A stretch of DNA of 64,000 nt from NCBI GenBank assembly GCA_038890815.1, contig JAWAFC010000003.1, positions 575 to 64,574 of the forward strand, read 5' to 3'. Of this stretch, positions 3,054 through 20,900 are shown piece by piece (positions within the stretch are counted from its first letter, which is position 1; each line of letters opens with the position of its first letter). Below the pieces are notes generated by a model that made no database searches, had not been told where the DNA came from, and saw only the letters and a program-made list of their open reading frames with translations. Origin of the DNA: Candidatus Micrarchaeia archaeon. Lineage in GTDB: Archaea > Micrarchaeota > Micrarchaeia > Burarchaeales > JACRGF01. The position numbers and the translations under genes were made by a program.

Positions 3054-3084
<31 letters not shown>

Positions 3085-3851: not shown

Positions 3852-3895
<44 letters not shown>

Positions 3896-4078: not shown

Positions 4079-4128
4079 GTGGAACCTTTTTTCGTCAACG
4101 TTTTTTCGTATCGACGAAAAAAGGTTGC
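4079..4128 (-). other. AT-rich ~50-nt palindromic hairpin insertion in 16S between CCAGTGGCG and AAGGCG (E. coli ~720; h22/h23 region); possible mini-intron or expansion segment
   Basis: The 16S-sense sequence CAACCTTTTTTCGTCGATACGAAAAAACGTTGACGAAAAAAGGTTCCACA has 14-bp inverted repeats (AACCTTTTTTCGTC / GACGAAAAAAGGTT). It also has a 3-nt bulge (CGC) four bp from the helix base. The equivalent archaeal 16S region normally has no insertion. Confidence 0.5.
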
Positions 4129-5107
4129 GCCACTGGTGGTCCTCACAGGATTAACGGATTTTACCCCTACCCCGTGAGTACCCTCGACCTCCCCCGCTCC
4201 CAAGCCTGCCAGTATTCCCTGCGCGCGCTGAGGTTAAGCCCCAGCATTTCACAGGGAACTTAACAGGCCAGCTACGGACTCTTTAAACCCAATATTCGTG
4301 GGCACCACTTGTGTTGCCGGTATTACCGCGGCGGCTGGCACCGGTCTTACCCAACACTTATTCAGCGAGTTGTTTGGACTCGCTAAAAGCCGAGCGCGTA
4401 GCCCGGCACTCCGAGTTCCCTCGTCACGCTTGCGCGCATTGCGAAGGTTTCGCGCCTGCTGCATCCCGTAGGACTAGGGCCCTTGGACCGGGCTGACCAC
4501 CTGCGAAGCTGGTCATCCCGTTTGTCTCAGTGCCCTTCTCGGGGCTCCAACTCCCATTGCCCCCACCGATTATCGGCTTGGTGAGCCGTTACCTCACCAA
4601 CAACCTAATCGGCCGCAGTCTCATCCTGGGGCGGACGCGCTCCAATTCGCGCGCCTTTTGAGTCGCGGGGGAGTTCCACCTCCCGCGGCCTGCCGGGGGT
4701 TAGCCACACTTTCGCGTGGTTATCCCCGTCCCCAGGGTAGATTGACTACGTGTTACTGAGCCGTACGCCGCCCGCCCAAGTGGGCGAGCAGACTTGCATG
4801 GCTTAGTCGAACTCGGATAGCAGTGCCCTCCAGCGGGATCAACTGGAGTTTGGACTGCCGTTCTGACAGTCCGCACACGCAGGAGTACCACCGCTTAGCG
4901 GTGGAAGCACTCACGATGCTCCTCTTGCCGTCTCTCGCCATTCCTTGAAGCCCAAGTCCAACCCGAATTACCTCGGGTTGCCATCGCGAAACCGAGCCGC
5001 TCGAAGGTGTACGCTGCAGTGGAAGGCAAACTTCATCGCCGCGAACTTAGAATTCGCGCTTCATCCAGCCGGGACTGCAGCCTCTCGGTAAGCTCGATTT
5101 TTGAGCA

Positions 5108-5153: not shown

Positions 5154-8100
5154 TCAACTCTGTGGAGAGGGGGAGCTACTCTCCTGCAGTTGTTTCATTC
5201 CCTCTATTATCTCATCAATATCATCTTTAATTACACCTATGCGTCTCAATGTTATTTCCTTGTCAGACCTCGAGCTGTCTGCAATATCATTTTTTATCAC
5301 ATCGGCTGTTGAGGAAAGCATTTCGAGAGCTTTAATATGTACTTTGATTTGCTCCTTGAGATCCCCTGGAAGCTGCACATGGGCGAAATAAGCATTCCTG
5401 TAGTTAGCCAGAAGTTTATCGAGCCCTTCCTCTTTTCCGCTGACTGTTTTCATTGCCTCTACTCCCGCATCGGCTGACCCGAAACCGGCCAGCACTTTTT
5501 CTTCCAGGCTCCGCAGCTCGCCCGTTATCCGCTCCTCTGATGCGCTGTCATGCGCTGCCTTAAACAGCGCTTCCCGCTGCTCCTCTGTGGACAGCACGCC
5601 GAGTGAGAAGAGCTTTCCGCCAAGCACATAGGCGCTCGCATCGTTACTATCCATGAAATCCCGCTGGTTGGCCTCCCAGCCTCCCAATGATGAGCGTGCC
5701 AGGTTTGCCTGGTTCTGAAGCAATGCAATCTTTCCCTCGAGTTCATTCAGCTCTTCCTTCACGGCATTCAGCCTTCTCACTTTTTCCTTGTACGCAAGAT
5801 AGTCCTCGGGCAGAGAAATCTCGTATTTAAATTTATCCTCGTATTTACCGCCGTATTTCTCGATGAGCTTTCTCTCGGCCTCCTCAATTTCATGCTCGTA
5901 TTTTTGTATGAGATCCTTCAACTTGTTTATCCGACCGCTTGTTTCATCAACTTTCTCGTCCAACTCCTTCCACTCCTTGTAACTCTTTTCTATGGCCGTG
6001 CCATTCTTTTTGAAGAGAAAGTCGCCTATCTCAATCGCGGCTTGGAGATACGGCATGCCTGAGATGGCTGATGGTAATGCGCTGGCGCGCTCAAATGCAT
6101 CTTTTTTGGCTTCGAGATTTTCTTGTGCATTGACTAACTCTAAATTGGCTTTTGCCGCGGCCTCCATAGATAAGGCGAGCTCATTGAATTTCTTTATTTC
6201 AGGAGGGGGCGACTCGCCCTCGAATATTATGGTGCCGTCGGCATTGTATTGAAGTTTTATGTTATTTTTTATAGCATAGTCGACAACGTCCGCGTACGCA
6301 TTCTCGAAGGCCTCGCGCTCTTTTTTTGAAAGTATTGCCAGCTGTTTTTCATAGTTTTTCTCTGCGGCATCCAGCCTGTCGCGCGCCAGCCTGTACTCCG
6401 CCTCTGCTTTCACAAGATCCAACGCCTCACCAATACCCTTAGCGGCATTCAGCTTCTCCAAGCCGCTTTTGACGGCTTCTTTGTTGTTATTATAGTCGGA
6501 GACGAGAGCGTTTGCCTTTTCTACAACATCTTTTGGCACTTCGGCGAGCTTTATGCTACCATCTTCGAAGCTCACCTGAAAGCCGTGCTTCGCCGCGAGC
6601 TCGAACAGCTGCTCTCGCGCGCTGGACATTTTTGAATAAGCATCCTTGATATCGGCCATGAGCCGGTTAGCATCTTCCTCGGCTTCACGCGTAAGTTTGG
6701 CGTTCCAGAAGTTGTCATTGAAAGTTTCGCACAACGCGAGGACTTCGTCCTGCTCGCGTTTCATCACATTTTTTTCTTTCATGTCCTTTTCCAAAGCCTC
6801 GCGATCAATATGGCCAGCAAGGGGACCCTCTGTGATGAATTTCAGCGAAATGCCGAGTTTTTTTGCAAGCTTTTCCAGCTTTTCTTTCGCTTCATCAGCC
6901 TTTTTCTGATACTCTTTGCTTCCCGGCTGTTCCTTTATTGTGCGCTCGAGCCGAGCAAATACAATGGCCTCTTCCAGCGCCGGAATGCGTGGGTCGTCTG
7001 GATTTTCCGCTCTGAGCCTGTTGAGCTCTGCTTCCATCTTATCCAATTTCGAGGTGATAGCATCGTTCAACCCTGCCATAAAGCTGCCCGTGGCAGGAGC
7101 AATCCCGCTGTCCCTCATACCCGTGTGCATGAGCAGCTGCGCCCTGCCGAGTTTGAGGAGTACTAACGATTGGTTTATCGCGCTCAATCCGTAGGCAAGA
7201 GCGTGAAGCCACAGCGGCCCGGCCGCTTTCTCCTTCGCAAACTCAGCATACTTGGCCTCCCACGTATCAAGTGTTTTAACTATCCAGCCTGCTGCCGGGC
7301 CTACTATCGGGATTTTCCTGGCAACCTCGGCACGTGTGAGCGGGCCACGGGCACCCCTTACGAGTCTCACCCTACCTGTGATAGCACCAGCAAGGTATGC
7401 AGGATTAGTATAAAGTGCGGCATAACGCACAGCCTTGCGCGAGTACTTCGCCGTCTGCTCAACTGCCACCATCCCCCATCCAAACGGGGTGTATTTGGCG
7501 AACCAGGTGTATTTGCCCTTTTCGTCGCGCAGCATTCTGGCAAACTGTCCACGGAGCTTCCCAAACGGTTTGCCTTGATACGAGGACCATCTGCCCGACA
7601 ACATCAGCATCAGCGGACTGAATTTTTTCCCTATGGCCTCTTGCTCTTGCTGGAAAAGTTGCTCCCTTTGCTTAATTGCTACATCAAGCTGCTTCTTGAG
7701 CGTAATGACTTCTTGTGTGTTCTTTGCATTCTTTATCTTAGTTTTCAGCTCTTTTATCGTGTTATTCAATTCCCTTCCTCTCTCGCTTCTGTTCACCCTT
7801 GCGGCCGCAGCCACCGCTATGCCGGATTGGATGAGTGCTGCGATGGAGGCGGTTGATATCATCATTGCTTGAGGCCCTCTCAGCCGCACCCTCGGGGGCG
7901 ACACGCGCGCGGTGAGGTCGAGCACGCCGAATGGATTGCGCCCGCTGGCGAACATCGCGGCGACCAAAAAGCTGACGATCAGGATGAGGGGGAAGCATTG
8001 GGTGAGGGTGAAGAGCGGCGGGATGCCGCCGGTGAGGCCCGAGGAGGAGTTGCTGGGCTGGAAGAGGTTATCGCCCTTGAAGAATGCGACCACCTCAAAG

Positions 8101-8810
8101 CTCTCGCCCTGCCCGGGCAGTGCGTACGAAACGAAGGCATATCCCTTCTCATCGGTGATCTGGCTTATGGGCGTTTCGCCGGGCAGGCAGCATCCCGTGC
8201 GGCAGCTCAGCTCATCAAGCCCGCACGCTCTCTGGCCCACAAAGCCGCAGTCCTCCACGGGCACATCGACCTCGATCTCGCGTGTCTGGCAGCAGAATGC
8301 GCAGTTTTCAAAGCTTGTGCCGGGCGGGCAGCCGTTTGGATAAGCGCCCTTGAAAGCGCCGCTGGCATTACAGCAGATGGCAGTGGATGGCGGGCAGGGC
8401 GCGCTGCCCGCAGGACATGCGCCGGCTATCTTTTTTATCCAAGGAGTGGCTGAATAGGCATCCTCGCAGCAGCCGACTCCCTTGCTGCACTTGTGCGTGC
8501 CGGCGGGGCATTGAGCCTCGTCTGGGTCGGCATAGCAGCAGCCCGTGAGGTTTGCGCAGAAGCGATAGAGCGTGGGGTCGCCGCACGAGCTCGCGCACCT
8601 CTGAAAATAGATTGTCCTCTGTGGAAGGGGGATGAGCATGCGGCGTACGGCATCGAGCGCGGCCAGGCGCGCCCTCGCCTCGAGCGTGCCCTGCTCCGGG
8701 TTTGTTTTTGTGGTGAGGGTGATGACTGTGGGTGATTTGGGGGCTGGGCAACCTTCCTCCTGCGCCCACGCCACAGAAGCCAACAGGAGGGCGAGCAAGA
8801 GCGCGCGCAT
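5154..8810 (-). CDS. Large membrane-anchored protein: signal peptide, ~270-aa cysteine-rich ectodomain, TM segment(s), and a ~900-aa K/E-rich coiled-coil region
   Basis: A 1218-aa ORF. The N-terminus MRALLLALLLASVAWAQEEG is followed by ~40 Cys in CC/CxC clusters (GCCYADPDEAQCPAGTHKC, AICCNASG, NCAFCCQ, CRTGCCLPGET). The hydrophobic stretches PLFTLTQCFPLILIVSFLVAAMFA and ISTASIAALIQSGIAVAAAA follow. The remainder is heptad-rich (EKLEKLAKKLG and similar). Confidence 0.75.
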   Translation of the reverse strand: MRALLLALLLASVAWAQEEGCPAPKSPTVITLTTKTNPEQGTLEARARLAALDAVRRMLIPLPQRTIYFQRCASSCGDPTLYRFCANLTGCCYADPDEAQCPAGTHKCSKGVGCCEDAYSATPWIKKIAGACPAGSAPCPPSTAICCNASGAFKGAYPNGCPPGTSFENCAFCCQTREIEVDVPVEDCGFVGQRACGLDELSCRTGCCLPGETPISQITDEKGYAFVSYALPGQGESFEVVAFFKGDNLFQPSNSSSGLTGGIPPLFTLTQCFPLILIVSFLVAAMFASGRNPFGVLDLTARVSPPRVRLRGPQAMMISTASIAALIQSGIAVAAAARVNRSERGRELNNTIKELKTKIKNAKNTQEVITLKKQLDVAIKQREQLFQQEQEAIGKKFSPLMLMLSGRWSSYQGKPFGKLRGQFARMLRDEKGKYTWFAKYTPFGWGMVAVEQTAKYSRKAVRYAALYTNPAYLAGAITGRVRLVRGARGPLTRAEVARKIPIVGPAAGWIVKTLDTWEAKYAEFAKEKAAGPLWLHALAYGLSAINQSLVLLKLGRAQLLMHTGMRDSGIAPATGSFMAGLNDAITSKLDKMEAELNRLRAENPDDPRIPALEEAIVFARLERTIKEQPGSKEYQKKADEAKEKLEKLAKKLGISLKFITEGPLAGHIDREALEKDMKEKNVMKREQDEVLALCETFNDNFWNAKLTREAEEDANRLMADIKDAYSKMSSAREQLFELAAKHGFQVSFEDGSIKLAEVPKDVVEKANALVSDYNNNKEAVKSGLEKLNAAKGIGEALDLVKAEAEYRLARDRLDAAEKNYEKQLAILSKKEREAFENAYADVVDYAIKNNIKLQYNADGTIIFEGESPPPEIKKFNELALSMEAAAKANLELVNAQENLEAKKDAFERASALPSAISGMPYLQAAIEIGDFLFKKNGTAIEKSYKEWKELDEKVDETSGRINKLKDLIQKYEHEIEEAERKLIEKYGGKYEDKFKYEISLPEDYLAYKEKVRRLNAVKEELNELEGKIALLQNQANLARSSLGGWEANQRDFMDSNDASAYVLGGKLFSLGVLSTEEQREALFKAAHDSASEERITGELRSLEEKVLAGFGSADAGVEAMKTVSGKEEGLDKLLANYRNAYFAHVQLPGDLKEQIKVHIKALEMLSSTADVIKNDIADSSRSDKEITLRRIGVIKDDIDEIIEGMKQLQESSSPSPQS

Positions 8811-8831
8811 GATGATGAAAAAACGTCCATG

Positions 8832-8841
8832 TTTATAAATA
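8832..8841. promoter_or_regulatory. Shared, near-palindromic TATA box (TTTATAAATA) for two divergent leaderless genes (ORF-A on minus, ORF-B on plus)
   Basis: It sits 22-31 nt upstream of the minus-strand ATG (8810) and 20-29 nt upstream of the plus-strand GTG (8861). The whole intergenic region is only 50 bp. Confidence 0.5.
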
Positions 8842-8860
8842 CCTTTGAAGATGGAATGGC

Positions 8861-10078
8861 GTGCGGCGTGTGGTCTTGTTGCTTCTGCTCGCAGGCTGTA
8901 TCTCCCAGCCTCCCGCCAACATCACGCTAGCCAACGTCACCCTGCCCGCCAACATCACACAGGCGAACATCACTCCCGTGAATCTCACGCAGCCAAGCGC
9001 GGAGAACATAACGCTCCCAATCGTAACCATCTCTCCATGCAACAGAATTTCCGCCCAGCCCGAGAGGGATGCCTGCGTGGCCGAGGTCGCGCTGAGGCTG
9101 AAAGAGGCGGGGCTGTGCGCGCAGGTGGCCGCGCGCGATAGAAGGTTTGCCTGCGCGCTGTCTGTGGCGAGCGCCACGCGGAATGCCAGCGCCTGCCTTC
9201 AGCTCGGTGAGGAGGCGGGCAGGTGTGTGCTGTTCTTGGTGCCGAACATCGGAGGTGAGGGCTGTGCGCTCATCAGCGGGCCTGAGCGGGAGATGTGCGA
9301 GGGCCTGGCGGCCTCCCTGAGAGGCGCTGAGGCGTGCGTTGCGCTTGCCGGCAGGGCGAGGGAGGTGTGCGCAAGGCAGGTGGCCCAGAATACGGGTAAT
9401 ACGAGCGTGTGCGAGCTGCTGGCTGGCGCGGCGAGGGAGGGGTGTAGTGCCGGCGCGCGGAGAGCAATTGGGATTAACATTAGCTGGAGCTCCTGCGCCG
9501 ATGCCCCGCAGGCAGCAAGGGATGGATGTTATTACCAGCAGGGAGTGGCGCGCGGCGATCCGGCCCTCTGCATGAGGATATCGAATGCAGATATGAGGGA
9601 GGGCTGCCTTGTGGTGCAGGACGATGGGGCGCTGAGCGCAGCCGCGCTCAATCAATCAAATCCATCGGCATTGTACTGCAAGTACATTCGAGCGCCAGAG
9701 ATGCGGGATGCCTGTTATGAGTGGGTGGCCATCTACCTGCTCGATCAGGGCCCGTGCGCTTTTGTCTCGCACAAGGACATCAAGGATGCCTGCTTTGCCT
9801 TCTCAAAGGCAAGCGATGCCCTTGAGCGAATTGTGGCCTTTGGCAATCCGGAAGGATGCGCGGTGCTGAATTTTCTCGGGGAGAAGGATGCCTGCTACGC
9901 CCGCATCGCTGCGGCCAAAGGAGACGCAACAATATGCGAAAAAATCACAAAAGAGCCCATGAGGGTGGAGTGCGCGCTGTCCCTGCTGTCGCAGCAGAAT
10001 GCCGCGACAGTGGCCGCGATATGCGAGGGGCTGACCAATGAGGAGGTGAAGGCGAATTGCACACACGCGCTTGGCTGA
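8861..10078 (+). CDS. Secreted/lipoprotein-like glycoprotein: N-terminal NxT sequon-rich stalk followed by ~12 Cys-pair repeats
   Basis: A 405-aa ORF starting MRRVVLLLLLAGC. It carries NITLANVTLPANITQANITPVNLTQPSAENITL and then repeats of (R/K)(D/E)xC-13..25-C, for example ERDACVAEVALRLKEAGLC, PEREMCEGLAASLRGAEAC and EMRDACYEWVAIYLLDQGPC. Confidence 0.7.
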   Translation: MRRVVLLLLLAGCISQPPANITLANVTLPANITQANITPVNLTQPSAENITLPIVTISPCNRISAQPERDACVAEVALRLKEAGLCAQVAARDRRFACALSVASATRNASACLQLGEEAGRCVLFLVPNIGGEGCALISGPEREMCEGLAASLRGAEACVALAGRAREVCARQVAQNTGNTSVCELLAGAAREGCSAGARRAIGINISWSSCADAPQAARDGCYYQQGVARGDPALCMRISNADMREGCLVVQDDGALSAAALNQSNPSALYCKYIRAPEMRDACYEWVAIYLLDQGPCAFVSHKDIKDACFAFSKASDALERIVAFGNPEGCAVLNFLGEKDACYARIAAAKGDATICEKITKEPMRVECALSLLSQQNAATVAAICEGLTNEEVKANCTHALG

Positions 10079-11829
10079 TTTTGCTTGCGGTGATGGGGCT
10101 GGCCATCGCCCAGCCGACATGCAGCGATCCGGCAACTGACACAAGGTATGGAGTGTGTTTCTCGCCTGGCTCGGGCACGGAGGAGCCATTTGAGTGCCCT
10201 AATGTCACGGATAAGTGGGGGAACAAACACAACAATTCGCAGTGGCTCAAGCAGACTCCCCTCGGGGATTTCGCCCTGTCGTGCGATGACCTCAATCCAT
10301 GCACTGAGGATTTTTTCGATGAGGACAAGGGGAAATGCATGTGCAGAGCAGTGCAGGATGGCTTCTATGGGGAGTGCGCGGGGCCGGATATGAGCGCGAG
10401 CAATGCGGCCTGCACCGAAAAGCGTTGCATTGGGGGAGTTTGCAAAACAATCACCGTTAAGGGAATAACCCCCATGTGCTCGGCAAGTGCTACCTACGAT
10501 TCACCTTGCAAGATAAATGTGTGCGAGAGCGGCGTCTGCACCGGGCCGAGGATTATTGGAGTGAATTTTGATTCGCAACGGGCGTGCTGCGGCAACGGCG
10601 AGCTGGAAGGCGATGAGAAGGATTGGTGCTGTGCAGACCTGCAGGCGACCGGCACGGGCCTGCCTGAGGGAAAGGAGTGCATCGGTGGCATAATGGTCAC
10701 AAAGAGCTATCTGGAGAGGGACCTTCAGCCCTTCATCAGGGCATTTCCATCGTGGGGGCCCGTCATCGTGCTCGCCCTTCTTATAGGCTATTTCCTCGCC
10801 GCGCTGGGCTACATGGCCGCGAGCTTTTTCAGGATGCCCGAGCTCGAGGCATGGGCAAAGAACGAGCTGGCTGAGGTGAGCGCAAGCGCGTTTTTTGCGG
10901 CCAATGCGATTTTTTTCATCGGGCTGATTGATGCGGCAGCTGTTGAGCTCATTGGGAAAGATTACTTCACCGTGGCGGCGAGCTTCCTCAACCTCCTGGC
11001 GGGCGAGACAGCGGCCATCATGGCCGAGCTGACGAGGGCGCAGTTCATTCTCGGATTCGGCTCAATGCTTGGAGTGCAGTTTGGTGTGCCTATATTTATT
11101 GTGATCGGATTCCTCGTGCCGGGCATGACGGCCTATCCTCTCGTGGGGGCTCGCATCATCACCACGGCGCTCGCCACCTATGGGAATGTCGCCACAATGA
11201 GCCTGATGAGCGCGCTCGGCATGGCCGTACTGCTGGAGTTCATAAACAGGTATGCGCTGACCGTCATACTGCCCGCTGGCATTGTGTTGAGGTGCTTCAC
11301 GCTGACGAGGCGGCTGGGGGCAACGCTCATGGCCATCGCAGTGGGCCTGTACGTGTTTTACCCACTGTCGCTGGCATGGAACGGCATGATATACGGCAAT
11401 GTGGAGAGGCCCAGCACGGGCGGCGTTTCGTTCATGAGCATCATAAACAACATCGTCGATCCCACGCCATTCCTTGAGATATTCGGCGGGCCCCCATTCA
11501 GGAGGTTCTGCGTGCACTGGTATGACTGGGTATGGTGCTGGTGGTATGCCATCATATGGTGGATCATCAACATGGTCATCGCATTCATCCAGCTTACCAT
11601 AGCGCTGGCCATGCTGTATTATGTTGGGCTTGCGACCACGCCCATAGGCGGCATCGGCGTGCTTGCATACGACTATTTTGTCGGTCTCATACCATCCATG
11701 ATTAGAACGATGGCGGGGGCATTCCTCTTCCCACTCATAGATCTAATTATAGTGGTTACGGCCATACGCTCGATATCGCCCGCCATTGGCGGGGAAACGA
11801 GGATAACGGGGCTGGTGGAGTTCATATGA
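10057..11829 (+). CDS. Membrane protein, paralog 1 of a six-member family, with an extra N-terminal ~200-aa cysteine-rich (EGF-like CxC) ectodomain
   Basis: A 590-aa ORF with a signal peptide and Cys-rich region. It then carries the family motifs GYMAASFFRMPELEAWAKNELAEV and LPAGIVLRCFTLTRRLGATLMAIAVGLYVFYP, plus the C-tail GETRITGLVEFI. Confidence 0.75.
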   Translation: MHTRAWLILLAVMGLAIAQPTCSDPATDTRYGVCFSPGSGTEEPFECPNVTDKWGNKHNNSQWLKQTPLGDFALSCDDLNPCTEDFFDEDKGKCMCRAVQDGFYGECAGPDMSASNAACTEKRCIGGVCKTITVKGITPMCSASATYDSPCKINVCESGVCTGPRIIGVNFDSQRACCGNGELEGDEKDWCCADLQATGTGLPEGKECIGGIMVTKSYLERDLQPFIRAFPSWGPVIVLALLIGYFLAALGYMAASFFRMPELEAWAKNELAEVSASAFFAANAIFFIGLIDAAAVELIGKDYFTVAASFLNLLAGETAAIMAELTRAQFILGFGSMLGVQFGVPIFIVIGFLVPGMTAYPLVGARIITTALATYGNVATMSLMSALGMAVLLEFINRYALTVILPAGIVLRCFTLTRRLGATLMAIAVGLYVFYPLSLAWNGMIYGNVERPSTGGVSFMSIINNIVDPTPFLEIFGGPPFRRFCVHWYDWVWCWWYAIIWWIINMVIAFIQLTIALAMLYYVGLATTPIGGIGVLAYDYFVGLIPSMIRTMAGAFLFPLIDLIIVVTAIRSISPAIGGETRITGLVEFI

Positions 11830-12803
11830 GGGCTTGGCTCATCGTGCTTGCACTCCTCCTTGCCGGCTGCACAGCCGAGCCACTCGCCGAGCTGCCTGGA
11901 TGCATCGCCCTGAGCGTGCGTGAGGAGCCGGAGCTGTATGGGTTGGTATTCGTGGCGCTGGTGGGCGTGCTGTTTGCCATCGCCATCGGCTACATGGCAG
12001 CCCAGCTTTTCAGGAGGCCTGACTGGGAAGCCATGGTGAGAGTGGAGCTCACCCAGACACTGCTGGGTGCGAGCATGATTTTCATCGCTGTGTGGCTGAG
12101 CGCATTCTCCTGCTCGATAAGCTATGAGCTTGCCGGGGGGGATACATTTGCCAAGGCAAACGCATACCTCGCAGGACTGACTTACGGGGAAATGATTCCG
12201 GCCATCATGAGGCTGTACGACAAGGCATGGCAGGCGGAGAAGCTGACGGCCTGGATCATTGGCATTTCCTCCTGCATGAGCGGCGTGTGTTTCCAGCCCT
12301 ATGCAGGCTACAGCATGGTTAGCTACAACCTCGGAACTGTGGCCGGCCTGCTCGCTCCCATCGTCACTTCGCTCATGGTGCAGATGCTCGCCCTCCAATT
12401 CATACAGCAGTTCGCATTTGTTTATCTGCTTCCGCTCGGCCTGCTGCTCAAGGCCGTGCCCTTCACAAGGGAAGCCGGCGCATTTCTCATCGCGCTCGCC
12501 ATCGGGCTGTATGTGGTCCTCCCGCTCACCTATATTTTCAATGCGAGAGTCATGGCGGACATCGGGCCGAGCATCACTGCGGGGAGCTACTGCGCGCTGA
12601 AGGCCGGGCCGGGTGACAAGCCAGGCGGGCAGGCGCTCGACAGCACGCTGGAGGGCGTTGGTGGGTTGTGCTCCACGGTCATTGCAGTTGTCGGGAAGAT
12701 TCTTCCGCAGGCAGTTTTCCTGCCCGCCCTCAACATAGTCATAACGCTCGCCTTTACAAGGACGATGGCGAGGATATTCACGCGGGATTACATGTTGGGG
12801 TAA
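11826..12803 (+). CDS. Membrane protein, paralog 2 (FtsX/MacB-like topology; novel family)
   Basis: A 325-aa ORF with an ATGA overlap to the upstream gene. Its motifs are IGYMAAQLFRRPDWEAMVRVELTQ and LPLGLLLKAVPFTREAGAFLIALAIGLYVVLP. Confidence 0.75.
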   Translation: MRAWLIVLALLLAGCTAEPLAELPGCIALSVREEPELYGLVFVALVGVLFAIAIGYMAAQLFRRPDWEAMVRVELTQTLLGASMIFIAVWLSAFSCSISYELAGGDTFAKANAYLAGLTYGEMIPAIMRLYDKAWQAEKLTAWIIGISSCMSGVCFQPYAGYSMVSYNLGTVAGLLAPIVTSLMVQMLALQFIQQFAFVYLLPLGLLLKAVPFTREAGAFLIALAIGLYVVLPLTYIFNARVMADIGPSITAGSYCALKAGPGDKPGGQALDSTLEGVGGLCSTVIAVVGKILPQAVFLPALNIVITLAFTRTMARIFTRDYMLG

Positions 12804-12807
12804 TGGC

Positions 12808-14025
12808 ATGCGGAAGATGATACACTTTGTGCTGCTTTGGCTTCTGCTTGCCAACAGCGTGGCTGCCGAACAGCAGTGTGAGGGCACGCGCATGTGCACG
12901 CTGTTCGCCAACTGGGCGCCCATCACTGCCATGGTCATACTCATCTCTCTCTTCGTTGTGTCGCTGGCCTTCATGGTGGGCAAGGGCCTCGGCATGCGGG
13001 ACATTGAGATGTTCGCCAAGGAGGAGCTGTACCAGTGCATTGCCAGCGCACTCATCCTCGGTGTGTTCATCAGTTTTGCGGCGCTCCTTGAGAGCACCTC
13101 GCAGCAGCTGGCCGGTGACATACTGACGGCCGGCACTCAGGGCACGACATTCGGCACACCAATCACAATGCGCTGGGAGTACACGGGCGACAGGAGCATG
13201 CGCTGGAGGACGACGGGCGCGCTCACCATAGAGAGATGCGGAGCTAACGACCCATTTCCCGATAAGAAATGCCACTTTTATTTGGCCAGGGCATTTTTGG
13301 GCAGCACGTTCGAAAAGCTGTCTGGGCAGGCGAGGGAGGTCGTAAAGCTGTATGGGCTCAGCATACTGTTTGACACCACATCCGTAAGCCTGGGGCTGCT
13401 TATCTTCGGACCCGTGTTTGGATTGGGGTTTGGCGTACCCCTTTTCGGTGGCAACAGCCTCCTGTACGAAACGCTCGAAACCATCTTCTCGGTCATGGCG
13501 AAGACGATGCTGCTGCTGAAATTCCAGGAGGTATCGCTCATGTACATCGAGAGGGGAATTTTCCCAGGCCTCATGATTGCCGGCCTCGTCTTCCGCTCCA
13601 TCTGGTTCATGCGGAAGCTCGGTGGGCTGCTGCTCGCGCTCGCCATCGGGCTATACACAATATTGCCGTTCATGTACATACTCAGCTGGTATACGATGGA
13701 TGCCGCACAGGCGAGGTATGATGTGAGCGCGCTGACCACCGCGCTTCAGAATAGGCAGAGCGCAGCGCAGGCCGTGATGGAGGAGCGGGGGCGTGATGTG
13801 GGGATAGGGCTATTTTTCCACCATGAGTACAGTGTGCTATTCACACACTACAGGTCTGATGGCAGCGTTGAGTACTATGGCATGCTCGATCTGGCCGGCA
13901 GGTATGCGCTCATAGCCATGGCAACGCCCACCATCGCGCTGTTCGTGCTGCTTGGTTTCGTGAGAGAACTGTCCGGCTTCCTGGGAGGGGACATTGAGAT
14001 CGCCGGACTGACGAGGATATTGTGA
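12808..14025 (+). CDS. Membrane protein, paralog 3
   Basis: A 405-aa ORF with the motifs LAFMVGKGLGMRDIEMFAKEELYQ and FPGLMIAGLVFRSIWFMRKLGGLLLALAIGLYTILP, and the C-tail GGDIEIAGLTRIL. Confidence 0.75.
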   Translation: MRKMIHFVLLWLLLANSVAAEQQCEGTRMCTLFANWAPITAMVILISLFVVSLAFMVGKGLGMRDIEMFAKEELYQCIASALILGVFISFAALLESTSQQLAGDILTAGTQGTTFGTPITMRWEYTGDRSMRWRTTGALTIERCGANDPFPDKKCHFYLARAFLGSTFEKLSGQAREVVKLYGLSILFDTTSVSLGLLIFGPVFGLGFGVPLFGGNSLLYETLETIFSVMAKTMLLLKFQEVSLMYIERGIFPGLMIAGLVFRSIWFMRKLGGLLLALAIGLYTILPFMYILSWYTMDAAQARYDVSALTTALQNRQSAAQAVMEERGRDVGIGLFFHHEYSVLFTHYRSDGSVEYYGMLDLAGRYALIAMATPTIALFVLLGFVRELSGFLGGDIEIAGLTRIL

Positions 14026-15212
14026 TGGCAACGAGAGCTGTGCTCAGCGTGCTGTTGCTTTTGGCTATGGGAGGGGCTGCCTGGGCGCAGGCAGCATGGG
14101 CTCCTGGCTGGATGAGCGTGGCTTTCCTGGCGCTGTTGGTTTCCTATTTCATGATAGGACTGGCCTTCATGTATGCCATAGGCTTCCAGGACGCCAGGAT
14201 GGAGGCCTGGTGCAGGCACGAGTTTTACCAGAACAGCGCCACGGCTGTTTTGCTGGGCATGCTCGTGGGGGTGAGCGCGCTGCTCGACAACACGCTGTAT
14301 CCGGCGTTCTGGAGCACGTCAATACTCAATCCTGAAAGCCAGAGGGCCAGCGCGAGCGTCTGCCCCAGCTCCACGCTGTCGGTGCCTGGGTTTGGGCTCT
14401 CGGTGACGCTCAACTCGCTGCGGTACAGCCCGCCAAGGGGAGGAAGGGGATTTGGAAACATACAAAATCATGTTGTGGGATATGTGGGGTGCCTTAGAAC
14501 GGCGGTCACAAAATACCTACTCGAGCTAAATCTCGGCGGTGTGTTCTTCGGCTTCATCTCCTCGCTGATGTTCAGTTTCGAGTTTGTGGAAATCAAGTTT
14601 GGCATGCTCAACATAATGCCGGGCGTTGTGATGAAGCCGGTGACGGACATGCTCGGCTACATAAACACGCTCGTGGCCATGCTCTTCCTGCAGCTCAGGG
14701 TGCAGGAGCTTGTGCTGACTTTCGCCCGCGATTATGCATTCTCTTTCCTGCTGCCTCTCGGCGTTGCCCTCAGGGCATTCACTTTCACGCGCGGGGCGGG
14801 TGGGGCGCTCATCGCCATCGCTGTCGGATTCTACATCGTGCTGCCCATCACCTATCTCTTCCAAGAGGAGATAACTGCTGATTACTGCGCGCGCCATGAC
14901 TGCCAGCGCTCGCTGCTCGCCAGATTTGGGTATGCGGGCAATCTGTATGACATCATTGTGGGGCTCATGGCAAGCGCACAAAGCGGCGGCATTGGCAGAG
15001 GGCTCACTGTGGCAGGCTCATTTGGGCAGGGCTACTCGCTGTCCGAGCTGATGTCGCTCAATGGACCTTTCGGGCCCGTGATATTCGTAGCCGGCATATC
15101 GGGGGCCGTGCTGCCCGCGCTCGGGCTCATCACGACATTCATATTTATGAAGTCCTTCGCGAACCTCATGGGAAGTGATGTGGACTTCAGCACGCTGATA
15201 AAAATTGTTTAG
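14022..15212 (+). CDS. Membrane protein, paralog 4
   Basis: A 396-aa ORF with an ATGA overlap. Its motifs are LAFMYAIGFQDARMEAWCRHEFYQ and LPLGVALRAFTFTRGAGGALIAIAVGFYIVLP, and the C-tail is GSDVDFSTLIKIV. Confidence 0.75.
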   Translation: MMATRAVLSVLLLLAMGGAAWAQAAWAPGWMSVAFLALLVSYFMIGLAFMYAIGFQDARMEAWCRHEFYQNSATAVLLGMLVGVSALLDNTLYPAFWSTSILNPESQRASASVCPSSTLSVPGFGLSVTLNSLRYSPPRGGRGFGNIQNHVVGYVGCLRTAVTKYLLELNLGGVFFGFISSLMFSFEFVEIKFGMLNIMPGVVMKPVTDMLGYINTLVAMLFLQLRVQELVLTFARDYAFSFLLPLGVALRAFTFTRGAGGALIAIAVGFYIVLPITYLFQEEITADYCARHDCQRSLLARFGYAGNLYDIIVGLMASAQSGGIGRGLTVAGSFGQGYSLSELMSLNGPFGPVIFVAGISGAVLPALGLITTFIFMKSFANLMGSDVDFSTLIKIV

Positions 15213-15220
15213 GTGGAAAC

Positions 15221-16258
15221 GTGAGCGTGTGTGCTGACCTGGCGAACTGGCCATCCGCCTGGTACACGGTTGCGGCCATCGGCATCGTGGCATCGGGCGC
15301 CGTCATTGGGTTGGTCTACATGATTGGGGTGACGCTCGGCAATCCCGGGCTCACCGCGCGCGCAAAGAACGAGATCTACCAAGTGGTGGCAACGCTGTGC
15401 ATGCTTGCCCTTGCCGTTGGGTTTGTGGGATTCGCCTGCACGGCCGATCTCAGCGGTTTCGGAGTGAGCGGAACGATCTATTCCGCCGCCGAGGCCTACC
15501 TCTCGTGGCTCGCCAGCCGCTCCATGTACGTGCTGGAGAGAATGATGCACCTGGCAGGGACGTGGGGATTTCTGGGCAGCATCGGCATGGGGATCACGAT
15601 AAGCGGCATAGGCTTCTCTTTCAACCCTTTCTCGGGCCTTTTTGGGCTTGTCAACATACTCAACATATTCATGTCGACAGCGCTCATCCTGTCGCTCACA
15701 ACGGCCGCGCAGTATGTGGTGTTCAAGTTCGCGCTTGAGGGCTTTCTGGGCTACCTCCTGCCTGTTGGTCTGGTGTGCAGGTGCTTCCCATTCACCCGCG
15801 ACTTCGGGGGCGCGCTGATTGCGCTCAGCGTAGGCTTCTCGCTGTTCTATCCATTCCTGTTCGCAGTGGACTGGGCGCTGGTGGGGCAGCCAACCAAGAG
15901 TACAATTGGAGGAGGGGGAGGAGATTTTGACAGGTGGGCGGTGGTGGATACGCTTGTGGGGTGGTATGTCTCCTTTGTAGTCGAGACTGTTGGTATCGTT
16001 ACCTTCTTTGCCGTCGTTGGAGTTCCGCTCATAATCCCGCCCATCCCGATTGTGAGCATACTGAAAATGCTCATGGAAATCTCCATCATGTTCCTTGATT
16101 CGATGATGCAGAGCGCGCTTATGCCGATAGGCGAAATACTTGTGGGCGGGCTTTTCCTGCCCGCGCTGAACGGCATCATACTTGTGGCTGTGGTGAGAGA
16201 TCTGTCGCGCGTGCTCGGCGAGGAGGTTGACATAACGACGCTGACGAGGATGGTTTGA
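15221..16258 (+). CDS. Membrane protein, paralog 5
   Basis: A 345-aa ORF with the motifs LVYMIGVTLGNPGLTARAKNEIYQ and LPVGLVCRCFPFTRDFGGALIALSVGFSLFYP, and the C-tail GEEVDITTLTRMV. Confidence 0.75.
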   Translation: MSVCADLANWPSAWYTVAAIGIVASGAVIGLVYMIGVTLGNPGLTARAKNEIYQVVATLCMLALAVGFVGFACTADLSGFGVSGTIYSAAEAYLSWLASRSMYVLERMMHLAGTWGFLGSIGMGITISGIGFSFNPFSGLFGLVNILNIFMSTALILSLTTAAQYVVFKFALEGFLGYLLPVGLVCRCFPFTRDFGGALIALSVGFSLFYPFLFAVDWALVGQPTKSTIGGGGGDFDRWAVVDTLVGWYVSFVVETVGIVTFFAVVGVPLIIPPIPIVSILKMLMEISIMFLDSMMQSALMPIGEILVGGLFLPALNGIILVAVVRDLSRVLGEEVDITTLTRMV

Positions 16259-17304
16259 TGACGTGGGAGACGAGCGCTGCTGATGTATACAAGACTTTCG
16301 GGGGCTATGGCTGGCTGGAAGTGGCCATGCTCGCCCTGCTCACCGCATTCCTGTCTGTCGCGCTCGCCTACATGCTCGCCATAGGGTTCAACCTGCCGAA
16401 CCTGAGGAGGTGGGCGAAAGCGGAATTTTATCAGGCTGCCGCGAGCGCCATGCTGGTGGCCCTCGTGTTCACGTTTGTTGAGGGAACAGATCTCCTGACT
16501 GGGGAAAGCCTGAAGTACTCGGCCGGCATCCAGCTGCTCCAGAAAAACACCGAGCTGTTTGCTGGCGACATCGTGGCGCCCGGCCAGAGGGGAAGGGTGA
16601 GGCCATTCAATGTTGTTTATGCACACGTGACCAACATGATAAACTGCGCCAGAGAAAAATACCTCAATGCCCTTGGCGAAACACAATGGCGGGAGTGGCT
16701 GACGCAGATTGTGATCACCCTGTCGATATATAAGATCGATTTGGTGATTCCGTTCCAGCTTCTCCTCTGGCCCCTCTACACGAACATCGTTGAGAACCAT
16801 GTCCTCGCCAACAGCCTTGTGTGGACGCTCATGGCCCTCTACTTCCAGCAGTCCTTCCTGCAGTGGGTTGAGACCTCGATGCTGACTGTGTTCTTCCCGC
16901 TCGGCATCATTTTGAGAATACTGCCCATCACGAGGGGAGCCGGAGCCGTGCTCATCGCCATCTCGCTGGGGCTCTACATCGTCTACCCGCTGCTGTTCAT
17001 ACTCATCGCCACAGCAGTGACTCCACCGAGCGGCTGCGCAAGGACCGAGATAACTCTCGAGCAGCCGCCCGAGATATGCGTCAGCGACCCATCGTCTTTC
17101 GTGCAGTTCCTAAAGGCAGCCGCACAGAGCAGAGGCACGCTCTACAGCGGGCAGGAGGCAAGCATGATGGCCCAGCTCACCATGTACGCCTTTTTCTATC
17201 CCCTCGTGATGATACTCATTGTGGTCATCTTTGTCAGGACGGCCTCCTCATTCCTCGGCGCAGAGATCACTGAGGTCGGGAGGGGGCTCTTCAGGCTGAT
17301 TTGA
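16255..17304 (+). CDS. Membrane protein, paralog 6
   Basis: A 349-aa ORF with an ATGA overlap. Its motifs are LAYMLAIGFNLPNLRRWAKAEFYQ and FPLGIILRILPITRGAGAVLIAISLGLYIVYP, and the C-tail is GAEITEVGRGLFRLI. Confidence 0.75.
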   Translation: MMTWETSAADVYKTFGGYGWLEVAMLALLTAFLSVALAYMLAIGFNLPNLRRWAKAEFYQAAASAMLVALVFTFVEGTDLLTGESLKYSAGIQLLQKNTELFAGDIVAPGQRGRVRPFNVVYAHVTNMINCAREKYLNALGETQWREWLTQIVITLSIYKIDLVIPFQLLLWPLYTNIVENHVLANSLVWTLMALYFQQSFLQWVETSMLTVFFPLGIILRILPITRGAGAVLIAISLGLYIVYPLLFILIATAVTPPSGCARTEITLEQPPEICVSDPSSFVQFLKAAAQSRGTLYSGQEASMMAQLTMYAFFYPLVMILIVVIFVRTASSFLGAEITEVGRGLFRLI

Positions 17305-17951
17305 TGCGCGCGTTCATCAAAAGAAACTTTCGGGCAGCGCTGGCGGCTGCGGCGTTCACTCTCGCCATACTGCTGGCCGCGCTTGCCTTTGTTGCCACAC
17401 CTCCACCATCCCAGCCTCCCCTCCCAGCGCAGGCTGAAGAAGTCCAGCCATCGGTGTGGGAGCCATTCCTGCCGCAGAACTGTAGCCCTTTCTTTGCCCC
17501 GACGACTGCCTCGTATGTCTATGCGGTGCGGTTCTCTGCTGGGGGCACTGACATAACAGGGCAGGTAAGCCATGAGCTCATATCGAGCAATGACTCATAC
17601 ACCATGAGGGATGTGCTGACAACGCCATTCGGAAAGTCTGCAATAGTTTGGGAGCTTGCGCCTGACCTGAGCTGCCGCCGGGTGCGCGCGAGCGCGGAGA
17701 TGAGCGGCATGCAGAGGGTGGACCGAGAGCTTCCGTGCGTGCCGCCCATTCCGTTTTTTGGGGCACCCTGCAGGGAGGAGATGGTGCTGAAGGGACTTAC
17801 AAACGCCAGCACGCCTTTCGGCACGATACCGGCAAAGGTTTATCATGCTACATCATCCAATGCTACATACATTGTGGCGAACAACATCGATGTGCCTCTC
17901 AAATTCGCCATTGGCAACATGCAGGGGGAGCTGATAAGATATGAAGAGTAG
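17301..17951 (+). CDS. Small N-terminally anchored or secreted protein of the same operon
   Basis: A 216-aa ORF with an ATGA overlap upstream and an 11-nt overlap with the downstream giant gene. It has a hydrophobic N-terminus followed by a Pro-rich linker. Confidence 0.55.
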   Translation: MMRAFIKRNFRAALAAAAFTLAILLAALAFVATPPPSQPPLPAQAEEVQPSVWEPFLPQNCSPFFAPTTASYVYAVRFSAGGTDITGQVSHELISSNDSYTMRDVLTTPFGKSAIVWELAPDLSCRRVRASAEMSGMQRVDRELPCVPPIPFFGAPCREEMVLKGLTNASTPFGTIPAKVYHATSSNATYIVANNIDVPLKFAIGNMQGELIRYEE

Positions 17952-20900
17952 AGTGCTCCTGCCGCTGCTTTTGGCGGCTGTGGTGCTGTCGAGCTGCGTG
18001 CTCAAGATAACCCCCAGGGTATCGCTGCCGACCTTCTCGCCCTCGCTAGGAGTGGCCGAGGCGCCATCAACCTGCAAAGAGCCGCCTTGCTACTGCATGG
18101 TGGAGGAGCAGCGCTATCGCTACAAGACATGGAGCTGCACGGGCAGTGCGGCCTCTGTGTGCGGCGAATTTGCCGGCGCAGCGGCCTGTTTCTTCAACTC
18201 AAGCGAGGGGGACTGGTGTGAGTATGTCGGAGGGGGAAGCGGCGGGCAGGGTAATTATCTGTGCTTTCAGTGGAATGGCTGCTATGACCCGGGAGGCTAC
18301 TATGTGCATGTCAAATGCAACTGCTGGTTCCAGGATGACATCGAGGTAGATTTCCTAGGTACAAAGAAGCCGGAGGATTTCAAATGCGGCTGCTTCATCT
18401 GTCCGGGCTGCCCGAGCACAAAGCTGAAATGCTGCGATCCGGAGTGCGCCACGCTCAACCTCACCTATGCCAAGCTTGCTGACGGCAGCGATGACACGGC
18501 CAGGCCGACCGGCATACAGAGGGATGCCGCAACAAACGCCCCACTGATAACGCGCAGGAAATGTGGGGAGGTGAGGCCGAGCATTCCTGGGCTGGGGAGC
18601 GGGCCTGCCATGGAAACGGCCTTTGCGCCCGGGCCGGCTGGATGTAGGGTGAACTGCACTTACGGCGACACAGCAAACTACTATTGCTATAAGAAAACGG
18701 CCAACGAGTTCAGCATCCACAGGAACTGCAAGACAGCATGGCTCTCCACGCTGCAGGGCGGAAGGCTGCTCACTGTCATTCCGTGCGATGCGCAGGAGAT
18801 GGCGCGCATCGTGAATTCGCCAACAAAAAAGCTCGTGCTTTTCAAAATAGGGCAGGGCCAGAGCCTCCAGGACTTCGAGTTTGCTAAGCAGCAGTGCCGG
18901 CTCGTCCCGCCCGATGTGCACAGGGTCACCATGGGCAAGCTCACTTTTGAGCCGACAGAGGCGAGCGTGCCGAGCTATGTGCGCTTCTGTTTCGAGAACA
19001 AAGACATCAAGCCACACAGCGTTTGCCAGAGCCAGGCAGGAGCGTGCATGCCCAATGGCCTCGCCTTTGACATCAAGCCCGAGGCCAGCGCCTGCATTGA
19101 GAGCGATGGCCTGGAGAGGCTTGGGGAGGGCAGCCACACCTTCATGGATGGCTTTTCAAAAGAGGAGTTCGTGCTCACGATAAAAAAGGCCGAGGCAGTC
19201 TTCGCCCTGCGCGATGCCATAAGCCCGCCCTATCTCGTGGGCTTTGAGAATGTTGGCGTGCGCTTTGAAAGCTATGCTGACATCGATAGGGAGATTCGGC
19301 CCATCGGCTTCTTTGACAGCATGCCGCCATTCAGTGTGCCGGCTAGGGGCCAGACAACCATGCAATTCAGGCCAGGGGTGTGGATGCTGAACGATACGGC
19401 GACCGGCACGCTCGCCACGCTGTTCGTGCTGAGCGAGACAAGAGATGTGAGGATTGGCGATGACATGGGGCCGGAGCGCATCGCCATACTCAGCGGCAGT
19501 GAGGTTTGCTTCAACAACACGCGCGGGGAACCCGTAGAGCTCGAAATATACGAGCGCTATGTGGGCGGCTTTTCGTACATCATGAACAAGAGCGTCGTGC
19601 CCGGAGGAAAGTGCTGTTGGACTCCGGAGCCTGGCAAGTATTTCGTCAATGCCAGCGGGGTTGGGGGAAACACGACGATATTTGTGGGAGAGGAGGCAGG
19701 GGCTGTGTTTGTCAGGATAAACAATCCAGAGTACTCGCCGCCTGAGCTGCTAACAAAGGTCGGCATGCGGGTGTGCTTTGTCAATCCATCAACAAAGGAA
19801 AGGACTGTGAGCGGTGGCGGCGCGTCGCTGGCCATACCGGCAAAATCGTTTGATTGCTCGTGCGTGCGCGTGCCGTGCCTCGTTGTTGAATCTGAAGGCA
19901 CGAACACATACGAGGACAGCGTCACCAAGGCCGTGTTCAAGGTCAGCGCGACGAGGAAGGAGAACAAGTTCATGAACATCACCGCTTACGGCATTTTCCC
20001 GCAGGGCGTGCTGTTCGATGGGCCCGGCAGCGTCTGCTTTGCCAACAAGGACAATGTCGAGCATGAGGTGAAGCTTGCCGAGAAATATCTCCATGTCGGT
20101 GGTGCTGTCAGACGATTGGCGGGCACGGAGAGCGTTAGGGTGGCAGCAGGCGACATCGGCTGCATCGAGCTGCCCGATGCCAATGGCTCTTTTGTGTTCA
20201 CCACATCCGGCAGGGCCGGCGAGCTAGTTGGGGTTGCTGTGAGAAACGATGCCCCGCCGAAAGCCGATCTGGCCGATCCAGTGGCGCGCAAGGCGGCTGA
20301 GGGCGTGGCGCGCATATACTTCACGCGGGCTGGGCCATTCCCGCGCGTACAGAGGGTGGGGAGCTTTGGCGACATCGAGCTGTGGAACGCCGACAACAAG
20401 CCGCACACTGTGACTGTGAACACTCAGACGCCATGCGACCAGCCTGATGCCTCGGGGGTAACGCACAGGCTGTGCCCCACCGTGAGCCTGAAAACATGCG
20501 ATGGGGGCGGGTGTGGGGGAGTCATCTGGCAGAGCAGGATGAAGTTCAAGCCCACAGACCCTCCGGCCATCGAGATACCCCCAAAGACCTACACATTCAC
20601 GGACGCTGGGAATAAGGCGAGCGTTGAGGTCATCAGCAAGGGCTTTGAGGTCGAGCTGGAGGCCATGGGCATTCCCACGCCATCCATTGCATCGCCACAG
20701 ACGATGGGCGGGAACCTGAACCTCATAAACCTGTTCAGGAGCGGGCCCATGCCTAAGACAACGCTGATGGCGCTCAGGGGATACATCCACCAGAACATCA
20801 TACCGGTCATCACGACATCGTTCGGCGGGCCGGGGCAGAGGGTTGTTGAGGAGATAGTCAAAACAGAGAGCGTGGAGACTTTGGAGTCTACGGCCGGCAG

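Follow-up and report, generated by a model that had tools for sequence, protein, structure and literature searches.

The window analysed here is a 64,000-nucleotide stretch of DNA from a Candidatus Micrarchaeia archaeon (assembly GCA_038890815.1, contig JAWAFC010000003.1), and the gene in question, ORF-A, lies on its minus strand and encodes a protein that appears to cross the membrane once. We lean towards the view that ORF-A is a bitopic, membrane-docked subunit with a cytoplasmic scaffold tail, and that it belongs to an undescribed envelope complex of Micrarchaeota, possibly one for host contact. The evidence comes from the build of the protein, from the distribution of charge, Cys and N-x-S/T sequons along it, and from the linkage of its gene to an operon of six paralogous membrane-protein genes. 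An earlier note on this DNA had described ORF-A as an unusual chimera of a signal peptide, a Cys-rich ectodomain, a transmembrane (TM) hairpin and a ~900-residue coiled coil. The label is misleading because about 100 relatives have one and the same architecture; in other words, ORF-A is not a one-off chimera and its build is the norm. No description of the ORF-A family or of its gene cluster was found in the literature searched.

Topology of ORF-A and its family

Relatives were collected in an exhaustive HMMER search in which a profile of residues 1-605 was run against 1.84 billion representative proteins. The search gave 159 matches at E <= 1e-3, of which 25 reached E <= 1e-10 and 12 reached E <= 1e-30. 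Some of the matches made up of several stretches were unrelated surface proteins consisting of tandem Big_3_5/Big_1 immunoglobulin (Ig)-like repeats. About 100 relatives shared a single build, in which a signal peptide is followed by an ectodomain of 93-406 residues, a single TM helix and, last, a charged tail (347-2066 residues). The conserved core of the family is short. It comprises the last beta strands of the ectodomain, which end in [FY]xPSxS, a TM helix with the motif C-x-P, and the motif G[RK][NS]PFGxxDF[ST] at the inner face of the membrane. ORF-A itself has the signal peptide, the [FY]xPSxS end, the C-x-P helix, the inner-face motif and a charged helical tail of more than 350 residues. 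All named relatives are from Micrarchaeota, and the 16 matches in GTDB representative genomes were all from Micrarchaeota/Micrarchaeia or, in one case, from 'Ca. (I)ainarchaeum'. On these sequences the ORF-A family is an uncharacterised one that is so far confined to Micrarchaeota (DPANN).

ORF-A is a real gene under selection because a full-length homologue, P0002 (1271 residues), is 36% identical to it over 100% of the query. Identity between the two proteins is 62-71% over residues 17-313 and 24-26% in the tail.

The earlier note had recognised a signal peptide in ORF-A, and it is indeed of the Sec type, with cleavage placed between MRALLLALLLASVAWA and QEE. An N-terminal hydrophobic segment is also found in most relatives. 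The proposal that the ectodomain is extracellular and disulfide-rich is supported. The number of Cys residues had been put at about 40 in the N-terminal ~270 residues, which is too high; the whole protein has 25, and 23 of these lie in residues 1-270. P0002 likewise has 23 Cys in its first 270 residues, and its five CC pairs are at the same or adjacent positions. In ORF-A the Cys residues form modules at residues 76-92, 101-115, 132-147, 161-174 and 196-208, with five CC pairs among them. The insertion that carries the modules spans 140 residues in ORF-A and is shorter in more distant relatives. Overall, the ectodomain has 9.3% Cys and 1.2 sequons per 100 residues, and its C-terminal end is an invariant P-S-N-S sequon (residues 252-255).

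The core of the ectodomain is probably a Big-like Ig domain because positions 214-265 of the ORF-A-family profile match tandem Big_3_5/Big_1 repeats of unrelated surface proteins, and because three of 18 family cores match Big_3_5, weakly (best E = 9.7e-4). For ORF-A itself, Pfam gave no Big_3_5/Big_1 match above the gathering threshold and no match of any other kind. The Cys modules of ORF-A and P0002 would be an expanded insertion inside this domain.

On which side of the membrane does the rest of the protein lie? The earlier note had seen one or two hydrophobic segments, and a strong one at residues 266-289 (Kyte-Doolittle hydropathy (KD) 2.28) is followed by a weak one at residues 314-339 (KD 1.67). 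The strong helix accounts for the membrane tethering that the note had proposed. It also makes up the first half of the proposed hairpin, whose second half is doubtful since the corresponding segment is not hydrophobic in most relatives. Across the family, the median of the best 19-residue KD in this second segment is 0.84, and a KD of 1.6 or more is found in 7% of members. Basic residues stand on either flank of the segment in ORF-A, and it probably forms a helix at the membrane periphery and not a second TM helix. A hydropathy scan found no C-terminal hydrophobic segment in ORF-A.

The distribution of charge and composition also points to a cytoplasmic tail. Five Arg residues lie within 21 residues after the TM helix of ORF-A. 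In 105 relatives, the mean number of Lys plus Arg is 1.3 in the 20 residues before the TM helix versus 4.3 in the 25 residues after it, and a positive-inside bias holds for 91% of these members. The predicted extracellular parts of the cluster in the window have 2.3-9.7% Cys and 0.9-2.6 sequons per 100 residues; the tail of ORF-A has 0.1% Cys and 0.46 sequons per 100 residues, and its Lys plus Glu content is that of the cytoplasmic Rad50 protein encoded in the same window. Averaged over 100 relatives, Cys makes up 2.9% of the ectodomain and 0.14% of the tail, with 1.6 and 0.48 sequons per 100 residues, respectively. Because of the charge bias, the Cys content, the sequon content and the non-conserved second hydrophobic segment, the most likely topology is N-out, C-in (type I, single-pass), with the helical tail in the cytoplasm. 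The earlier note had said that a cytoplasmic coiled coil, together with a clear match to a known cytoskeletal or ESCRT-like family, would speak against its proposal; the predicted topology is cytoplasmic, and a match to such a family is absent.

The TM helix is part of the best-conserved region of the protein. Residues C272 and P274 within the helix, and G290 and P293 just after it, are invariant in the family core alignment. In the family at large, the juxtamembrane motif reads G[RK][NS]P[FIL]GxxDF[ST]. Few parts of the protein are as well conserved as the TM helix and the G[RK]NPFG motif, which hold invariant Cys, Pro and Gly residues; both would therefore be more than an anchor.

The tail is rich in Lys and Glu (21.5% together), and residues 340-1218 contain 24 Pro and 54 Gly. 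A home-made heptad scan placed ~38% of these residues in heptad-like segments of 30-65 residues. An AlphaFold2 (AF2) model of residues 330-1218 has 79% helix in 28 helices, the longest of 68, 68 and 59 residues, and three small beta hairpins; its mean pLDDT is 51. The earlier idea of a scaffold-like helical remainder agrees with the high Lys/Glu content and with the ~79% helix of the model. A ~900-residue coiled coil does not, since only ~38% is heptad-like, no helix exceeds 68 residues, and residues 395-600 are not coiled coil. This central region can be aligned also with P0003 and a few other relatives, has an AF2 pLDDT of ~30 and gave no Pfam match. Furthermore, the motif K-x-G-[IF]-x-h-x-F...G-x-I occurs three times in the tail (near residues 651, 740 and 845), where it coincides with the AF2 hairpins, and is kept in P0002. 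The three motifs are to be taken as a by-eye observation with AF2 support because self-BLAST of ORF-A found no significant internal repeat. A jackhmmer search with the tail inside the family recovered P0002 alone. A Foldseek search of the PDB with the tail model, a weak test given the low confidence of the model, returned generic long-helix proteins with a best E of 0.29.

Domain searches fit the earlier statement that ORF-A lacks enzymatic motifs, as no enzymatic domain was found in Pfam or NCBIfam. For ORF-A together with its neighbours nothing significant was found in Pfam, NCBIfam, PHROGs or PADLOC, and a sequence search of the PDB with ORF-A gave no significant match. Coiled-coil noise below threshold was present in the Pfam and NCBIfam results for ORF-A, for example KIF9 at 15.8 bits and FliH at 20.5 bits, where the cut-off is 148.9.

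Linkage to six paralogs and the proposed role of ORF-A

Nine genes whose stop and start codons overlap form an operon that begins 50 bp upstream of ORF-A and is transcribed divergently from it. None of the nine proteins has a Pfam or NCBIfam match. Six of the genes encode paralogous membrane proteins with ~5 TM helices each. The paralogs have in common the motif LPxGxxLRxFPFTRxxGxxLIAxAxGxY and a C-terminal motif, G-x-[DE]-h-x-h-x-x-L-x-+-h-h. They appear to be an ancient fixed-order set because position-specific orthology persists across distant genomes. An AF2 model of the last paralog reached a pLDDT of 71 and a pTM of 0.65. Foldseek with this model against the PDB gave a best E of 0.35, and a search of PDB sequences with the paralog profile returned nothing.

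Linkage was mapped by placing hidden Markov models of the paralogs and of the ORF-A core on 25 fetched loci (referred to as L001 and so on). In the window, and in 19 of 19 further loci that have enough flanking sequence, the ORF-A-family gene is found next to the paralog operon. Two gene orders are found. In the divergent order, which is that of the window, the spacer measures 43-125 bp in ten cleanly readable loci. In the collinear order, a gene for a ~1400-residue protein with a signal peptide and 3.7-3.9% Cys lies between the ORF-A-family gene and the paralogs. Large Cys-rich secreted proteins are encoded in at least 12 of the loci: seven carry a homologue of the giant protein of the window (window included) and six are of the collinear kind. 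Homologues of the giant follow the six paralogs in L001, L007, L011 and L013-L015.

The divergent spacer itself suggests shared control. Archaeal TATA boxes lie ~26 nt upstream of the transcription start. The centre of the single TATA box in the window is 26.5 nt away from the ATG of ORF-A; on the other side, the GTG that starts the first operon gene is at a distance of 24.5 nt. This geometry fits bidirectional leaderless transcription from one site for the TATA-binding protein because of the ~26-nt distance usual in archaea. The layout, a TATA-like element in the middle of a spacer of 43-53 bp, recurs in six other loci (L001, L010, L011, L013, L016 and L024). The spacer is probably a bidirectional, leaderless promoter for ORF-A and the operon, and the co-regulation from one TATA box that the earlier note had suggested is supported by the sequence and by the recurrence of its geometry.

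How might ORF-A work? The Sec signal peptide would export an ectodomain of ~245 residues that is stabilised by disulfides and combines a Big-like Ig fold with the 140-residue insertion of five disulfide modules. The TM helix would then stop transfer, and the Arg-rich juxtamembrane segment would hold the remaining ~900 residues in the cytoplasm. Conservation and synteny suggest that the TM helix and the juxtamembrane motif most likely dock ORF-A into a complex of the six anciently diverged 5-TM paralogs. The paralogs, if co-transcribed as predicted, would be the obvious partners; the motif conserved at their C-termini is likewise predicted to lie in the cytoplasm. The giant Cys-rich extracellular protein would, judging by synteny, be part of the same module. 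The tail is most likely an elongated cytoplasmic scaffold or tether, which may oligomerise or link the complex to cytoplasmic partners, rather than an enzyme or a precise ruler, because it is helical, variable in length and fast-evolving. That the whole module is a cell-envelope apparatus for host contact or exchange is speculative. The idea of a structural role in contact or exchange arises because the module has Cys-rich extracellular parts, occurs in obligate symbionts of one phylum only and encodes no ATPase. It is possible, if rather doubtful, that ORF-A, the six paralogs, the 216-residue protein, the giant and the 405-residue Cys-rich protein form one Micrarchaeota-specific, envelope-spanning machine for host contact or material exchange, such as the 'docking platform' of the micrarchaeon ARM-1, with the tail of ORF-A as its cytoplasmic scaffold.

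Several points weigh against ORF-A being a docked subunit with a cytoplasmic tail. Its topology was derived by simple rules on charge, KD, Cys and sequons, and its second segment is borderline enough that ORF-A itself may have a hairpin topology. The low mean pLDDT of the AF2 tail model makes the segmentation into helices uncertain. The physical association of ORF-A with the paralogs is proposed from synteny only, and a host-contact function is inferred purely from lineage restriction and the extracellular Cys-rich partners. Furthermore, L005 and L006, which come from one genome, have the six paralogs and no ORF-A-family gene within 10 kb. An active transport role lacks support, as neither an ATPase nor any other energising component is encoded in the cluster.

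The membrane-tethered stalk of the earlier note requires that the helical part lies outside. In its full form, a TM hairpin (N-out, loop-in, C-out) would let the ~880-residue helical part project outward as in SlaB and tetrabrachion, where it might anchor the S-layer or the giant Cys-rich protein. A KD of 1.67 in the second segment of ORF-A, with values of 1.76-1.83 in a few relatives, would allow such a hairpin, the other proteins of the cluster are mostly extracellular, and the S-layer protein of Micrarchaeum may, according to the paper that describes it, require a separate TM stalk protein. However, in 93% of relatives the second segment lacks hydrophobic character, in ORF-A it has basic residues on both flanks, and the TM helix precedes the helical part, which reverses the order known from SlaB. 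The tail also has few sequons and far less Cys than any predicted extracellular part of the cluster, its interrupted helices do not make a continuous rod, and neither the sequence nor the fold search of the PDB gave a significant match. We regard a stalk as quite improbable. A transmembrane receptor is still less credible to us. Its ectodomain would sense a ligand or the host surface and its helical tail would relay the signal, in the manner of chemoreceptors or adhesion receptors. The order of an extracellular Ig-like domain, one TM helix and long cytoplasmic helices recalls such layouts, and the lineage-specific expansion of the ectodomain could mirror specificity for a ligand or host. However, Pfam and NCBIfam searches turned up no output domain, whether HAMP, MCP-signal, kinase or another, and neither che nor two-component genes are found nearby. 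Moreover, the tail is less conserved than any other part and its length varies six-fold, which would be unusual for a signalling module.

With a cytoplasmic tail, ORF-A could also be an autonomous, EzrA-like cytoskeletal or division scaffold that is co-expressed with the paralogs without being a physical part of their complex, the adjacency reflecting shared regulation in envelope growth or division. The coiled-coil segments of the tail are in line with this, as are the housekeeping genes around the cluster (rRNA, Rad50, PCNA, SecDF and RNase P) and the one genome whose paralogs lack an adjacent ORF-A-family gene. However, the conservation of the TM and juxtamembrane region, with its invariant Cys, Pro and Gly, argues for specific partners within the membrane, and the linkage holds in two different gene orders. 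No similarity was found to EzrA, SepF, CdvA, ESCRT-III or other known division scaffolds. An autonomous scaffold is unlikely in our view, and the membrane-docked subunit with a scaffold tail is the reading we carry forward.

Features of the window and genomic surroundings

Table 1. Features of ORF-A, the divergent operon and the adjoining rRNA genes in the window.
Feature	Position	Strand	Remarks
ORF-A coding sequence	5154..8810	minus	1218 aa + stop; identical to NCBI metagenome-assembled-genome protein QXG98_01795 ('Candidatus Micrarchaeia archaeon')
Sec signal peptide, aa 1-16	8763..8810	minus	MRALLLALLLASVAWA; cleavage after AWA, before QEE, read from sequence
Ectodomain, aa 17-262 (246 aa)	8025..8762	minus	probable Big_3_5-like Ig fold split by Cys-rich insertion
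Five tandem 4-Cys modules, C-x6-8-C-x2-6-CC	8187..8585	minus	regular-expression scan
TM helix, aa 266-289	7944..8015	minus	LFTLTQCFPLILIVSFLVAAMFAS; KD 2.28
Juxtamembrane motif G-R-N-P-F-G-x-L-D-L-T, then Arg-rich stretch, aa 290-313	7872..7943	minus	predicted cytoplasmic
Weakly hydrophobic Ala/Gly/Ser-rich segment, aa 314-339	7794..7871	minus	KD 1.67
Tail, aa 340-1218 (879 aa)	5157..7793	minus	K/E-rich, mostly alpha-helical, fast-evolving; predicted cytoplasmic
Central non-coiled region, aa 395-600 (206 aa)	7011..7628	minus	W/G/P/aromatic-rich; 39% identity to P0002, moderately conserved
Beta-hairpin motif 1, aa 651-670	6801..6860	minus	conserved in P0002; short strand residues in AF2
Beta-hairpin motif 2, aa 740-757	6540..6593	minus	AF2 strands at model residues 416-427 (aa 745-756); conserved in P0002
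Beta-hairpin motif 3, aa 845-864	6219..6278	minus	AF2 strands at model residues 524-534 (aa 853-863); conserved in P0002
Divergent intergenic region, 50 bp	8811..8860		one palindromic TATA box, TTTATAAATA, at 8832-8841
Operon gene 1, 405-aa Cys-rich protein	8861..10078	plus	lipobox-like signal (LLAGC); orthologue at same position in L001; no Pfam match
Six tandem paralogous polytopic membrane-protein genes (590, 325, 405, 396, 345, 349 aa)	10057..17304	plus	alignment; overlapping stop/start codons
216-aa protein	17301..17951	plus	N-terminal anchor and extracellular body; orthologue in L001
2345-aa secreted giant	17941..24978	plus	4.3% Cys; no family match
Large-subunit (LSU) rRNA	1-2326	minus	cut by window edge; directly downstream of ORF-A with small-subunit (SSU) rRNA, as rRNA operon

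Within the operon, the 405-residue protein has 6.8% Cys and 2.6 sequons per 100 residues and contains repeated, helical-looking '...RD.C...' units. In L001, which is the most closely related of the loci, a second copy of the 216-residue family lies directly downstream of the ORF-A homologue and convergent with it (13824-14510, minus strand), at the place that the rRNA operon occupies in the window. Two of the loci (L003, 1-1882, and L008, 1-2613) belong to Anstonellaceae (Micrarchaeia, phylum Microcaldota) and have SecD/SecF genes directly after the six-paralog operon, which may be a coincidence or a functional hint at export. In the genome of L005 and L006 (2941-13855 of a 1.37-Mb contig), an IS605 OrfB/TnpB gene (Cas12f1-like_TNB) lies just upstream of the paralogs. 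A 901-residue cytoplasmic protein made of ~90-residue tandem repeats is encoded downstream of, and convergent with, the paralogs of L005; it was considered as a relative of ORF-A and rejected as unrelated.

On the other side of ORF-A, the SSU rRNA gene (2714-4849, minus strand) matches the 1478-position archaeal model in full and is 2136 nt long, which indicates an insertion of ~650 nt. The insertion carries a 179-residue open reading frame (3132-3671, minus strand) with no Pfam match. A protein-coding insertion has been reported in the 16S genes of ARM-1 and ARMAN-2, both Micrarchaeota (PMC8784108). All open reading frames listed at 518-4177 lie inside rRNA and are spurious, and no tRNA gene was found in the 64-kb window. 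Beyond the operon, at 24740-28046 on the plus strand, a gene for an aEF-1beta-like protein (EF1_GNE, E = 2.5e-10) slightly overlaps the Rad50 reading frame. The SMC_N match of the latter begins only at residue 184; its start is annotated too far upstream, or else the protein has an N-terminal extension.

Micrarchaeota and similar DPANN archaea live on archaeal hosts, to which they attach, and are missing most biosynthetic pathways. Electron cryo-tomography has revealed structures for contact and exchange in them, but which proteins build these is not known (PMC11329633). A chromosomal module that is so far found in one phylum offers a concrete set of candidates for a host-contact or exchange machine. 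Its parts are six paralogs in fixed order, surface proteins of very large size that are rich in disulfides, and a bitopic protein whose TM helix is conserved and whose long tail is predicted to be cytoplasmic. The analysis also defines two protein families, neither of which matches Pfam, NCBIfam or the PDB. Even without a role in host contact, six paralogs that form a membrane complex equipped with a cytoplasmic scaffold would, if true, be a new kind of archaeal envelope system.

Comparison with known systems

SlaB (the S-layer stalk of Sulfolobales) and tetrabrachion (of Staphylothermus) resemble ORF-A as archaeal envelope proteins in which beta-rich extracellular domains and a long helical or coiled-coil part are joined to a Sec signal and a single TM helix. 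Both carry their coiled coil outside the cell and are anchored at the C-terminus. ORF-A has the SlaB-type succession of a Sec signal (residues 1-16) and a probable extracellular beta-sandwich (the Big-like Ig core). It differs in that its TM helix (residues 266-289) precedes the helical part and its tail is predicted to be cytoplasmic, and there is no sequence or fold match. A SlaB-type stalk was rejected because ORF-A has no extracellular coiled coil ending in a C-terminal TM anchor, and a tetrabrachion-like stalk because the longest helices have 68 residues, residues 340-1218 contain 24 Pro, and PDB sequence and fold searches gave nothing significant. ORF-A was also rejected as an S-layer protein; the known S-layer protein of Micrarchaeum is almost without sulfur-containing residues and carries S-layer domains.

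Other candidate identities were likewise set aside. An SMC/Rad50-like protein is not supported, as no SMC_N or AAA match was found in ORF-A, and Rad50 of the window, the positive control, was detected at 3.4e-20. Profile searches found no domain of ESCRT-III, CdvA or known archaeal cytoskeletal families, and the best PDB match by Foldseek had E = 0.29 on a low-confidence model. The tape-measure-like scaffold of the earlier note is not supported either. No tape-measure PHROG was matched, the sole PHROG match (E = 0.003) being to a family of unknown function; the neighbours, such as rRNA genes and Rad50, are chromosomal; and the six-fold range of tail lengths within the family speaks against a ruler. 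The chromosomal context and the lack of a significant PHROG match also led to the rejection of a mobile element or virus. No HAMP or MCP-signal match in Pfam was found that would indicate an MCP/HAMP receptor, and no PADLOC match that would indicate a defence system.

Ig domains of the Big_3_5/Big_1 type in adhesins such as invasin and intimin match the ectodomain core of ORF-A (residues ~214-262) transitively, and residues 21-71 are the probable N-terminal half of the domain. The domain in ORF-A differs in being a single copy that is split by a 140-residue insertion of 4-Cys modules and falls below Pfam thresholds, and ORF-A has otherwise no adhesin features.

The closest functional parallels appear to be EzrA of Firmicutes, the nesprins (KASH proteins) and HMW2 of Mycoplasma. 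Each of these combines one membrane anchor with an extended cytoplasmic region that is repetitive, helical and variable in length, and organises a machine at the membrane. By this analogy, ORF-A most likely works like membrane-tethered cytoplasmic helical scaffolds of their kind. However, no homology to them is detectable, and ORF-A differs from them in having a signal peptide, an extracellular domain that is Ig-like and Cys-rich, and a highly conserved TM region. The six 5-TM paralogs have no counterpart in these systems either.

For the paralogs, an analogy can be drawn with the Mce heterohexamers of mycobacteria. Both sets consist of six anciently duplicated paralogs encoded in fixed order in one operon, which, purely as an analogy, suggests a hetero-hexameric envelope assembly with accessory proteins. 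The two do not resemble each other in sequence or fold. The archaeal paralogs are polytopic (~5 TM helices), whereas Mce proteins are single-pass and carry an MCE domain, and the archaeal cluster lacks genes for an ABC ATPase or permease.

A last comparison is with a structure rather than with a protein. Electron cryo-tomography of the micrarchaeon Microcaldus variisymbioticus ARM-1 showed a barrel-shaped, 21-nm 'docking platform' in its envelope, located under the S-layer at the site of contact with the host (Johnson et al. 2024, PMC11329633). The protein composition of the platform is unknown, and its authors also consider host proteins as material for the barrel (PMC11329633). The gene cluster described here is from the same phylum and is predicted to be a phylum-restricted envelope module with large extracellular proteins. 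It may, speculatively, be put forward as a candidate for the docking platform of ARM-1.

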